A stretch of 64,000 nucleotides of DNA from Bacillota bacterium (GCA_023419605.1 JAEZXR010000020.1:4108-68107), one strand, 5' to 3'. Counted from the first letter of the stretch, positions 9,692 to 61,797 are shown. A program made the numbers and translations. The notes: generated by a model from the letters alone, not told the origin.

Positions 9692-12150
9692 TTGTCAGCA
9701 GTTCTGAACAGTTATTTATATGGATATGTTGCGGTTCCTGTTATCATTTCCTGTATAAAGAATAACCTTTTTAAAATAGTAAGCTCGTCGGAACCTGTAC
9801 ATTTCAATGATATTGTTGAAAACCTGCATGCAAATGGAGGGCATCTTCGAGTCGCGCTGCAGATGATGGAATCCTTACGCTGGATTTCCAGAAACGACAA
9901 TGATGAATATTTATTGAGTCAGAAATCGGATATTTACCGGAAAATACCGGAAGACATTACAAAGCTGCTGTCATTTCCAATGCATGAATATGTAAGTAAA
10001 AGTCAAAAAAGGCACAGTATTAAAAAATGGATTGAGATGTCCGCCAAACGATGGAACATTGAGGATACAGTGTTTGCTGACTTCCTGGATGGAATGCTGG
10101 CGATTCCTCTGCTTGTTGCCTTGAAAAAGAACAATTTTCTAGGCAGCAAGGACCATCATACGGCACCACTATTTTCGGCACTGAGCCCGGCTGTGCATAA
10201 AGAAGTAACTAGGTTTTTTACCGACCGGGGATGGCTGGAACAAGAGGGCGGAGGTTATGTTTTTACAGATAACGGGCGTTTTATGACGGAAAGAATTTCT
10301 ATTTTTGAGACAGTCGCTTTCTACAGGCCAATGCTGGCAAATATGTCCGAAGTTATATTTGGTGATTGCAAGGTTGTGTTTGCAAGGGATGAAAATGGGA
10401 GAAAGTCACATATTGACCCCGCTTTGAATGCAAAAGGATGCTGCTTCCAGCACGAAAATCACTTCTCCGACATAGAGGAAATCATCCTGTCGATATTTAA
10501 CCGGAAACCAATTACGGAGCAGCCGAAGTACATAGCCAATATGGGGTGTGGGGACGGAACGCTTCTGAAAAGAATTTATGAGGTTATTAAGAATAAATCC
10601 TTACGGGGTGAAGTTCTTCATCAATATCCAATCAAGCTTATCGGAATGGATCGTAATGAGAAGATTTTGATGGAAACGATCCACACCCTGGAGAATATCG
10701 ACCATTTGATTCTGAAAGGCGATATCGCGGATCCTCTACAGGCTATAGCTGATATAAAGAACTATGGGATACAGGATACGGAAAATATTTTACATGTACG
10801 TTCCTTTCTTGATCATGATCATCCTTATATTGCGCCCTCCGATAGTGCCGCAGTAAATGTAAGGCTACATGTTCCATCAAAAGAGGTATTTGTTTCAGAG
10901 GAAGGCACCGAAATACCTGCTGCGTCCGTGATGCAAAGTTTAGTGGAACATTTTGGACGTTGGTGGGAGATTTCAGGCAAGCATGGCATTATTGTATTGG
11001 AAGCGCATAGCTTGGACTCTAAAGCAACCGGTGAGTTTTTGGATGTGTGTGAAAGCTTATGCATGGATGAAATACATCGGTTTTCACAGCAGCAGCTTGT
11101 AGAAGCGGGCACGTTCCTGATGGCAGCGGCAGAAGCTGGATTATTCCCGGATGAGAAGTTTTTTAGGAAATACCCTAAAACGCTGTCCTTCAGCAGAAAT
11201 ACCCTGAATTATTTTAGACCCATGGATTACAGGGTGAGGTATGCAAAAAAAACTGATTTGCCTGTTCTTGAAAAACTGGAGGAACAGTGCTGGGATCATG
11301 GGCTGCAGATGCCTTCCTCTGTCCTGGAAAAAAGAATAGAGCTATATCCCCAGGGACAATTGGTTATTGAGACGGATAATAGGGTCGTAGGAGCTCTATA
11401 TTCTCAACGCATTGACAATACAGAGGATTTGAAAAGCGTTAATTTTGAAACTGTTGGGAATCTTCACAGAAAGGATGGACCTATTATTCAGCTGCTGGCT
11501 TTAAATGTATTTCCGGATATGCAGCATAGAAATCTTGGAAGCCGGCTGCTGGAGTTTATGCTGCAGCGAAGCAGCCTGGAAAGTGGTGTTCGTACAGTTG
11601 TAGGTGTAACGAGATGCAAGAATTATGGCAGGCACTCTCACCTTAGCCCTCAAGAATACATGAACCTTCGAAATCCTCAGGGAAGGCTGGTTGATACTGT
11701 TCTAAGAATGCATGAAAGTCATGGGGCGCAGATCATTGAGGCCATTTCCGGTTATCGTCCCCAGGATATAAAGAATAAAGGATATGGTGTGCTGGTGAAA
11801 TATGACGTATTTAACCGCAGGAGTAATGATATACGTGTTGGGAGCGAGGTTTCAGAAATGCCTGTAAAGAAAGAAAATCCGGAAAAACTTCAACTGATAA
11901 AAGACTTTATTTTAAAAACAGTAGCCCATATTCATGGAGGAATAAATAGAGATGACTTGCTGCTAGAGCAGCCTTTAATGGAACTGGGACTGGATTCCGG
12001 GGATTTAATGGAGCTCAATGAACAAATCAGTTATACGTTCAGCATTCCGTTGGAATCCACTTTTTTCTTCAAGTATAACACAATATCGAAGATTATTATG
12101 TATTTACAGGAGCGCACAGAATTCATGCAGAAAGTAGAACTGAAAACAGA
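9692..12150 (+). other. PKS loading module: about 510-aa MT-like domain, GNAT, ACP (approximate bounds)
   Basis: See the motifs listed for PKS 1. The GNAT starts near residue 513 and the ACP serine is residue 769. Confidence 0.75.
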
Positions 12151-60526: not shown

Positions 60527-61797
60527 TTAGCTCTCTTTTCACCGTTCCAGTTGAAGTCATCCTGTATCCCATTTTTATTCAAAATGTTTTGAAGCGTTTC
60601 AGTCTGAACATCAATAGGAAGTTTCTTCGTTGAAAAAATCAAAGCAAGCATCTGCAGTGCTTCCTTTACTTGTTCTTTTGACGGTTCGACAAATTCCTTT
60701 TCGATAAAACTTTGAATTTTCCGAATTTTCTCGTAAGGTTCTACTACACCTTTTAAATATTCTTCCTCGCAAGGGTTATAATTGGGAGCAGCGGCGGCGG
60801 CAGCGAGGCAGTCGGTGATTACTTTATTCTGCGTTTTCTCCGTATAACCGCTTCCTTCCAATAACCCTGCAAGTGCTTGCCTGCTTGTTTTCTGATCAAA
60901 GCATACGGTGGATATGTTCTTTGCATCAAGTTTCAGCAGGTCACTGAGTATACCCTGAGGACCCAGTTCGATAGTCATTGTAATGCCGAGTGCTTGAAAA
61001 TATTCTAAGGTCTTCGTCCATTGTACAGGGTACATCATTTGCCTGACAAGTAAATCCCCAATGTCCTTATGACTCGGATAGGGTTTTCCTGTGAAGTTGG
61101 ATATTACAGGATACCTGAAGCTGTTAAAATTGCATTTCTCCAATTCGGCTTTCAGCTTATCGGCGGCTGGTTTCATTAAAGCGCAATGAAAGGGTGCACT
61201 TCCTATTAATGGTGTGACCTGCCCTCCTAATTTCAATATCTTGTCTTCTACGGCCAATACAGTATCCAGATGGCCTGAAACGGCAACCTGCTTTGACGAG
61301 GTATAACACGAAACCGTTGCTGTTTTTTCCTCGGTGGAACTTTCTTTGCACGTATTCTCCACTGTAGATGCATCAATCCCATCTATGATTGTCATACAGG
61401 AGTCTCCGGCATCCGCAATTTCATGGGCAAGCAGACTCCGTAACCGCACAATCCTGAGAGCATCTGCAAATCTGAAGGCACCGCTGCAGGCCAGGGCGGA
61501 GTATTCTCCAAGGCTGTGACCGGCACAAACCTGAGGCCGTATTCCATATTCATTCATAAATATCCTGAATGCTGCAACACTTGACGTGAAAATAGCCGGA
61601 AGGGCATTTTGAGTCATTGACAGTTCACCCAGGCTTCCTTCAAAGCAAAGATTTTTCAAATTGAATCCCAAAACATCATTTGCTTCCTCAAAAGTTTGCC
61701 GTGCTGCAGGAAATTGATCGTAAAAAGCCTTTGACATTCCTACATACTGAGAACCTTGTCCGGGAAATATAAATGCAATTTTTTGTGGAGTAGACAT
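60508..61797 (-). CDS. discrete (trans-acting) malonyl-CoA:ACP acyltransferase, FabD-like with a C-terminal extension of about 120 aa
   Basis: 429 aa. FIFPGQGSQYVGM, GHSLGEYSALA (active-site Ser) and SAPFHCALM (xAFH-type, malonyl-like). RBS AAAGGAAGAG. The only AT in the window. Confidence 0.9.
   Translation of the reverse strand: MSTPQKIAFIFPGQGSQYVGMSKAFYDQFPAARQTFEEANDVLGFNLKNLCFEGSLGELSMTQNALPAIFTSSVAAFRIFMNEYGIRPQVCAGHSLGEYSALACSGAFRFADALRIVRLRSLLAHEIADAGDSCMTIIDGIDASTVENTCKESSTEEKTATVSCYTSSKQVAVSGHLDTVLAVEDKILKLGGQVTPLIGSAPFHCALMKPAADKLKAELEKCNFNSFRYPVISNFTGKPYPSHKDIGDLLVRQMMYPVQWTKTLEYFQALGITMTIELGPQGILSDLLKLDAKNISTVCFDQKTSRQALAGLLEGSGYTEKTQNKVITDCLAAAAAAPNYNPCEEEYLKGVVEPYEKIRKIQSFIEKEFVEPSKEQVKEALQMLALIFSTKKLPIDVQTETLQNILNKNGIQDDFNWNGEKRANKQETI

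Follow-up and report, generated by a model that had tools for sequence, protein, structure and literature searches.

Does a 64,000-nucleotide (nt) stretch of DNA from a Bacillota bacterium (GCA_023419605.1, JAEZXR010000020.1:4108-68107), hereafter the window, encode a complete polyketide synthase (PKS) of the trans-acyltransferase (trans-AT) kind, and if so, what would it make and does it have known counterparts? A first-pass annotation of this DNA had proposed an orphan trans-AT PKS assembly line of about 52 kb, leading to a tetramethyl polyene hydroxy-keto acid or macrolide. Our computational analysis indicates, with a probability of roughly 80%, that positions 8791-61856 are a complete, functional five-gene trans-AT PKS cluster of an uncultured anaerobic Clostridia bacterium, probably acquired horizontally. 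Its predicted product is an undescribed methyl-branched polyene acid.

Genes and modules of the assembly line

The cluster consists of four megasynthase genes, named O1 to O4 from 5′ to 3′, a discrete fifth gene for the acyltransferase (AT), and an upstream control region.

8804-8832, + strand: sigma-70-type promoter, TTGACA-17-TATAAT, 12/12
8833-9691, + strand: 5′ leader, 860 nt, with GGGAGG 8 nt before the TTG start
9692-25507, + strand: O1, 5271 amino acids (aa), TTG start
25504-45756, + strand: O2, 6750 aa
45760-57855, + strand: O3, 4031 aa
57872-60463, + strand: O4, 863 aa
60508-61797, - strand: discrete AT, 429 aa, convergent to O1-O4

O1-O4 total 16,915 aa with no internal stop, and the uninterrupted coding sequence in the window amounts to 50.7 kb. 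O1 and O2 are joined by an ATGA stop/start overlap at 25504-25507. For domain assignment, the proteins were split at the boundaries of the ketosynthase (KS) domains into 14 module pieces, each of which was scanned against Pfam; the elongating modules below were assigned by Pfam and motifs. The other domains are dehydratase (DH), ketoreductase (KR), C-methyltransferase (cMT; MT, methyltransferase), acyl carrier protein (ACP) and thioesterase (TE).

9692-12211, + strand: loading module, in O1, with AprA_N, winged helix, Methyltransf_36, GNAT and ACP (Pfam); C-methyltransferase at aa 1-506, GNAT decarboxylase at aa 507-710, ACP at aa 750-804
12212-16693, + strand: module 1, KS-DH-KR-ACP
16694-21220, + strand: module 2, KS-DH-KR-ACP
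21221-27093, + strand: module 3, split between O1 and O2, KS-DH-KR / cMT-ACP
27094-29544, + strand: module 4, KS-ACP alone
29545-35484, + strand: module 5, KS-DH-KR-cMT-ACP
35485-39936, + strand: module 6, KS-DH-KR-ACP
39937-43809, + strand: module 7, KS-KR-ACP
43810-49044, + strand: module 8, split between O2 and O3, KS / KR-cMT-ACP
49045-53511, + strand: module 9, KS-DH-KR-ACP
53512-59440, + strand: module 10, split between O3 and O4, KS-DH-KR / cMT-ACP
59597-60427, + strand: TE domain, in O4 (PF00975, E = 9e-34), with the nucleophile motif GYSLG

By Pfam the line contains 10 KS, 7 DH, 9 KR, 4 cMT, 11 ACP and 1 TE, and self-BLAST with the first KS as query also returned exactly 10 full KS domains. 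The earlier proposal of a trans-AT PKS of about 52 kb is thus borne out in its main lines: the four co-directional open reading frames (ORFs) with a convergent FabD-like AT were recovered, the domain order was reproduced without change, module by module, and each of the ten KSs has its Cys/His/His set. The claimed lack of a cis-AT in the megasynthases was likewise confirmed, PF00698 (Acyl_transf_1) being absent from all 14 module pieces. The KS linkers, previously put at about 190 aa, are indeed too short for an AT, but KS and DH lie about 245 aa apart; this spacer holds nothing but KAsynt_C_assoc and RhiE-like linker matches in Pfam. The long KS-KR spacer of module 7 was searched for a hidden enoylreductase (ER) or DH, and none was found. 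Traits of the trans-AT class are present in the three split modules (M3, M8 and M10) and the four in-line cMTs, and the best PDB matches of the KS that was tested (KS4) are trans-AT KSs.

Inspection of the catalytic residues gave a consistent picture of intact domains. In the alignment, the active-site Cys and the His residues of HGTGT and NxGH are conserved throughout the ten KSs; the first of these His motifs reads HGAGT in KS4. The catalytic His motif, the YGP motif and DxxxQ/H are present in 7 of 7 DHs. Each of the nine KRs has the NADPH motif, Lys/Ser/Tyr and an acidic residue at the third position of 'LDD'. This B-type pattern points to D-hydroxyls and E-olefins. The S-adenosylmethionine (SAM) motif EIGAGTGG and the His/Glu pair were found in every cMT (4/4), and the Ser is kept in all 11 ACPs, with NS instead of DS in ACP4. 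Identities between KSs within the line are 83% for KS2/KS3, 82% for KS7/KS10 and 73% for KS5/KS8.

The discrete AT matches PF00698, and the FabD catalytic residues are in place: GQGSQ, GHSLG, the Arg that binds malonyl and the His of APFH. Its match to E. coli FabD (1MLA, E = 1e-63) is closer than that to DisD/PksC, which are dedicated trans-ATs (E = 1e-34). Its residues 295-429 (60508-60912) form a C-terminal extension of 135 aa that has no Pfam family and no paralogue in the window, and that may be a docking element.

The boundaries of the cluster were obtained from an orthologue. Among 5.8 billion proteins, O4 has a single close relative (P0002, 88% identical); beyond this orthologue, other matches in the protein database are at most 60% identical and partial. 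P0002 is encoded on a contig of 373 kb in ENA assembly ERZ1694528, where all five genes recur; their products measure 5267, 6758, 4031, 860 and 423 aa. DNA identity is 92% over the approximately 40 kb compared (8791-35476 and 47875-61856), and the recovered 40 kb or so of ERZ1694528 contain no frameshifts or stops, the gene lengths being the same or nearly so. The homology runs from about 8791, directly upstream of the -35 box, to 61856, 59 nt past the AT start codon, and the AT is therefore inside the common block. In the window, the left neighbours of the block are an amidase and a group II intron and the right neighbour is a patatin, whereas the ERZ1694528 cluster is flanked by PadR and pentapeptide-repeat genes on the left and APH and TetR on the right. 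Since the homology is confined to 8791-61856 and the flanks are unrelated, the cluster is composed of the promoter, the 860-nt leader, the four PKS genes and the AT. When the two clusters were compared, dN/dS was 0.20 for O1, 0.19 for the first half of O2, 0.22 for O3, 0.27 for O4 and 0.19 for the AT, and 0.02-0.13 for KS domains. Values of about 0.2 indicate that the cluster genes have been kept by selection in two lineages.

Within the leader, 8791-9254 and 9542-9691 are conserved with the orthologue, and 9255-9541 is replaced by unrelated sequence. A small ORF at 9219-9389 was rejected as a gene, being without conservation in the orthologue and without a Pfam match. For a riboswitch or other structured RNA no claim is made, as no Rfam family matched the leader and the fold z-score was -0.9. 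A weak hairpin with a T-run lies at 9582-9619, upstream of the ribosome binding site (RBS), and the leader may have a role such as antitermination control.

Predicted product, module 4 and the starter unit

In the mechanism that we propose, one sigma-70 promoter and the long leader would drive the four megasynthase genes, which are translationally coupled or closely spaced. The convergent FabD-like AT would load malonyl in trans onto all 11 ACPs; the domains are observed and the activity is what we infer from them. On the loading module, malonyl-ACP would be C-methylated once or twice by the metal-dependent MT of the SxtA/AprA-MT1 type and then decarboxylated by the GNAT to propionyl- or isobutyryl-ACP, as suggested by homology and the catalytic residues. 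Ten elongating modules would add ten C2 units and four SAM-derived alpha-methyls, and the predicted collinear chain is an all-E 2,6,12,16-tetramethyl, 7,9-dihydroxy, 15-oxo, 2,4,10,12,16,18,20-heptaene. The TE would release it, most likely as the free acid, with the formula C28H40O5 (monoisotopic 456.288) from an isobutyryl starter or C27H38O5 (monoisotopic 442.272) from a propionyl starter. Strict collinearity does give the pattern of methyls, hydroxyls, ketone and olefins listed in the first-pass annotation. The macrolide offered there as one form of the product is, in contrast, unlikely on the collinear structure, whose hydroxyls, only at C7 and C9, would close 8- or 10-membered rings. With no distal hydroxyl, macrolactonisation is unlikely and the linear acid is the default.

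Several observations weigh against a functional line that works as drawn. The source is a metagenome-assembled contig, and genes for a phosphopantetheinyl transferase (PPTase), a transporter, resistance and a regulator are all absent from the conserved block. Two DHs depart from the His motif: the HxxxG glycine is replaced by Glu in DH5, and the motif Pro by Ala in DH3. The extent of starter methylation is ambiguous, as the residue of the loading MT that aligns with the SxtA gatekeeper Ile204 is Thr207 (10310-10312) in the window, as in AprA, which dimethylates, and Met in the orthologue with 92% DNA identity. Moreover, trans-AT PKSs often break collinearity. In this line ACP4 is similar to ACP7, and KS5 shares 73% identity with KS8, the recipient of a beta-hydroxy chain.

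The last point bears on the oxygen at C15. Module 4 aligns to module 7 with 57% identity over the KS and linker and 41% over the ACP, and it is without the approximately 530 residues that hold the KR in module 7, of which the alignment reveals no remnant. The ketone previously assigned to C15 therefore stands as the collinear assignment, but not as a certainty, module 4 being like module 7 without its KR and KS5 being like KS8. The likeness of ACP4 and KS5 to their counterparts may reflect processing of the C15 oxygen in the manner of module 7, or a plain duplication of an ACP-KS unit. If the line were non-collinear at modules 4 and 5, C15 would be reduced by the KR of a neighbouring module or by one elsewhere in the genome, or module 4 would be skipped or would stutter. 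The outcome would be either a 15-hydroxy polyene, from which the TE could form a 16-membered macrolactone, or a different chain length. The likenesses just described speak for this course of events, as do the TE homologues, which terminate lines of unknown release mode. However, KS4 has a complete set of catalytic residues and is under strong purifying selection (dN/dS 0.11, with 0.13 for ACP4), and the conserved block has no free KR. In addition, a KS of the KS5/8 type follows a DH-KR module in a Pelosinus cousin of the line, and for this reason such a KS is not diagnostic of a beta-hydroxy chain; the use of a KS5-type KS as a marker of a preceding KR-only module, which we considered, is weakened by the same case. 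Taken together, we regard non-collinearity at this point, and the 15-hydroxy or other product that it would bring, as possible but rather unlikely, and retain the 15-oxo chain.

The starter unit is predicted from the loading module. O1 residues 4-706 match the methyltransferase-decarboxylase didomain construct of SxtA (PDB 7UCI/7UCL, E = 3.5e-214), and the loader also matches AprA MT1 (PDB 6B39, E = 4e-143), the identity being 43-46% to SxtA proteins over approximately 700 aa and 37-38% to AprA. The GNAT part matches the GNATs of CurA (2REE) and GphF (6MFC). When the loader was aligned with SxtA, AprA and six other relatives, it kept every invariant column, including the motifs DMGCGDGTLLK (SAM), RSFLDHD and LE(V/A)H, and the equivalents of CurA Thr355 and His389 were found, by alignment to 2REE, as the Thr in VVGVTRC and the His in LRMHESHG. 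The dN/dS is 0.23 for the MT and 0.23 for the GNAT.

The literature describes an MT-GNAT route to methylated starters both in SxtA and AprA (PMC10784701) and in the gephyronic acid and thiamyxin pathways (PMC10100342). In SxtA the didomain first adds a methyl to malonyl-ACP, and decarboxylation then yields propionyl-ACP; AprA and GphF carry out two methylations to dimethylmalonyl-ACP, which GphF decarboxylates to isobutyryl (PMC10784701, PMC10100342). Because the loader of the window is SxtA-like, keeps the invariant and decarboxylase residues and is under purifying selection, a methylated starter is expected. It is probably propionyl or isobutyryl, between which the sequence does not choose, and the total would then probably be C27-C28 rather than C26. 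An Ile204-to-Thr change in SxtA, mimicking AprA, permits a second methylation, as relayed in PMC10784701 from Lao et al. 2022; strains with the Thr and the Met gatekeeper may use different starters.

These results weaken the acetate-primed C22 chain of the first-pass annotation. For acetate to be the starter, the MT-like region would have to be an inactive adaptor as in CurA, with the GNAT decarboxylating malonyl to acetyl and a product of C26H36O5 (428.256). The commonest GNAT loaders do supply acetyl (curacin, pederin and rhizoxin; PMC10100342), and the Pfam score of the GNAT itself is weak. Nevertheless, this MT region shares the identities given above with active SxtA and with AprA MT1. 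The DMGCGDG SAM motif is present in it, as are all the family-invariant His, Asp and Glu columns, and the dN/dS of the region equals that of catalytic domains. Acetate priming is thus improbable, and acetate is the least likely of the acetyl, propionyl and isobutyryl options.

The closest free-standing relative of the loader (P0142, 58% identity) is a truncated fragment of 684 aa at 10001-12053 of CP070762.1 (L026). It has no downstream PKS, lies between a C25 peptidase and a DDE transposase, and is apparently the remnant of a lost cluster. P0143, another of the closest matches of the loader, sits on a short contig, and neither protein is informative on the pathway.

Deletion scar, flanking DNA and host

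The KS stub that had been noted before the TE is real, and is 16 aa long.

59441-59488, + strand: relic of a KS N-terminus, 16 aa (DAAITGLSGRYPEAAN), O4 residues 524-539

The sequence DAAITGLSGRYPEAAN has no Pfam match and aligns with the first residues of KS domains of the cluster, for example IAIIGMSGRYPQARN; in the orthologue it is already drifting (VAITGLSERYLGAAN). O4 residues 1-539 and 557-858 align with many proteins of 1.4-1.5 kaa with the order MT-ACP-KS-ACP-TE, from Streptomyces, Pendulispora, Polyangiaceae and Pelosinus (including P0003, P0005, P0006, P0014 and the Pelosinus locus L019). In comparison with P0003, P0005, P0006 and P0014, O4 is short of approximately 680 aa and the terminal KS-ACP is not present. 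Judged from these alignments, the stub is the scar of a deleted terminal KS-ACP. Because O4 skips about 680 residues of its partners and has the 16-aa stub left, the line is the shortened form of one with an eleventh condensation, and the stub is a visible record of how trans-AT lines shorten in nature, which makes it a small mechanistic handle.

Outside the conserved block, the following features were mapped.

1803-2489: serine recombinase, in the mobile patch of the left flank
2962-3186: XRE helix-turn-helix (HTH) gene, same patch
3481-4602: HD+CHAP protein, same patch
4853-5326: IS110 transposase fragment, same patch
6280-8014: group II intron, with Rfam D1-D4 at 6280-6451 and 6505-6575 and a reverse-transcriptase/maturase ORF at 6599-8014
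62405-63388: patatin-like phospholipase gene, adjoining the AT and outside the block common to the orthologue

The 3′ end of the intron is undefined, D5/D6 giving no Rfam match at threshold. The HD+CHAP protein belongs to the same 90%-identity cluster as WP_066495783.1 of Abyssisolibacter fermentans. The statement that the window contains no regulator needs correction for the XRE-type HTH gene, but this gene lies in mobile DNA beyond the conserved block. The patatin-like gene is probably not part of the pathway.

GC content is 48% in the cluster and 37-44% in the flanks. This contrast, the mobile left flank and the unrelated flanks of the orthologue make horizontal acquisition of the cluster likely; att-like repeats were searched for at the cluster borders, and none were found. 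Other contigs from the same or a close strain (97% identical) continue the right flank to a DAHP synthase, which shares 80% identity with its counterpart in Anaerobacterium chartisolvens and 77% with the one in Pseudobacteroides cellulosolvens. This affinity indicates that the host is an uncultured Clostridia bacterium in the neighbourhood of the cellulolytic Acetivibrio/Ruminiclostridium.

That the locus yields no product, being silent, in decay or misassembled, is very improbable: the metagenomic origin, the lack of PPTase, transporter and regulator, the crowd of mobile elements on the left, the deletion scar in O4 and the truncated loader fragment in another genome would fit such a case, but the unbroken coding sequence, the stop-free 40 kb or so of the orthologue, the dN/dS of about 0.2, the colinear contigs of independent samples and the consensus promoter with its RBS all argue against it.

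Relatives and comparison with known systems

No orthologue was found in 185,579 GTDB species genomes (one genome per species), in which the best match had 52-57% identity over the MT-ACP part only. Similarly, no characterised pathway with the same module order and high identity was found in the GTDB scan, the 5.8 billion proteins or the literature. Within these genomes, proteins and publications the orphan status first proposed is confirmed, and the cluster is a genuine orphan, but of an ordinary and well-known kind of system that would not surprise a specialist; nothing here alters the understanding of trans-AT systems. Cryptic trans-AT PKSs were first reported in cellulolytic clostridia by a 2012 survey (PMC3250452). 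Papers on celluxanthene and on clostridial PKSs were considered, and proved unrelated. The interest of the locus is that strict anaerobes are a poorly mined source of polyketides, and that a compact five-gene line with exact boundaries is suited to synthesis and heterologous expression. Moreover, the line places a C-methylating loader of the SxtA/AprA type in front of trans-AT modules, and the position reported to set the extent of methylation varies naturally between Thr and Met; this provides a small mechanistic handle.

The whole line was compared by tblastn with the related loci of the species-genome scan, which returned cousins at 50-60% identity with related but different module strings in anaerobic Bacillota. 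A metagenome-assembled genome (MAG) of Syntrophomonadaceae (L003; DATMYR010000017.1, 6-17635) has the same MT-GNAT loader, with 60% identity over 2873 aa. Its string reads loader-KS-DH-KR-ACP-KS-DH-KR/MT-ACP-KS-DH-KR-ACP-KS... on an incomplete contig, and has no KS-ACP module 4. The locus of Desulfocucumis palustris (L020) is collinear with O3-O4 at 52%. In a Pelosinus MAG (L019), the line ends with DH-KR-MT-ACP-KS-ACP-TE, and the terminal KS-ACP lost in the window is retained there. The module numbers of these three cousins differ from that of the window, and none has a known product. We tentatively suggest, at somewhat less than even odds, that the window and its Syntrophomonadaceae, Desulfocucumis and Pelosinus cousins form a trans-AT polyene synthase family, as yet uncharacterised, among the obligate anaerobes of the Bacillota, in which a methylate-then-decarboxylate loader of the SxtA type would start a new branched-starter polyene acid and the Thr/Met gatekeeper difference between the two orthologues would be a natural isobutyryl/propionyl switch. 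If this is true, the product would join the very few modular polyketides that strict anaerobes are known to make.

At the level of single domains, the best structure matches of KS4 with its linker come from an orphan trans-AT PKS of Brevibacillus brevis (7ZMA, 7ZMC and 4Z37; E = 0 to 5e-292). This likeness is limited to individual KS-linker units; the overall line differs, and its product is likewise unknown. The loaders of SxtA, AprA and GphF have the same order of N-terminal metal-dependent C-MT, GNAT decarboxylase and ACP as that of the window, but they belong to cyanobacterial or myxobacterial cis-AT or pyridoxal phosphate (PLP) systems, whereas the window loader heads a trans-AT line in Clostridia. 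AprA has a pseudo-GNAT and an MT2; the loader of the window has neither. With the AR-GNAT of CurA, the window loader shares the catalytic Thr and His of the GNAT. The gatekeeper residue is Ile in SxtA, Thr in the window and Met in the orthologue.

The Bacillus species that produce macrolactin, difficidin and bacillaene were absent among the related loci of the species-genome scan. Their clusters, namely macrolactin mln, difficidin dfn and bacillaene pksX/bae, are among the closest known systems, being Firmicute trans-AT PKSs for polyenes. They have a discrete malonyl AT, as does the window, and they share with it runs of KS-DH-KR-ACP for conjugated polyenes, split modules and TE release. The window differs from them in being without the HMG-CoA synthase (HCS) cassette for beta-branching, a nonribosomal peptide synthetase (NRPS) module, a trans-ER and tandem ACPs, and in having four in-line cMTs and the MT-GNAT loader.

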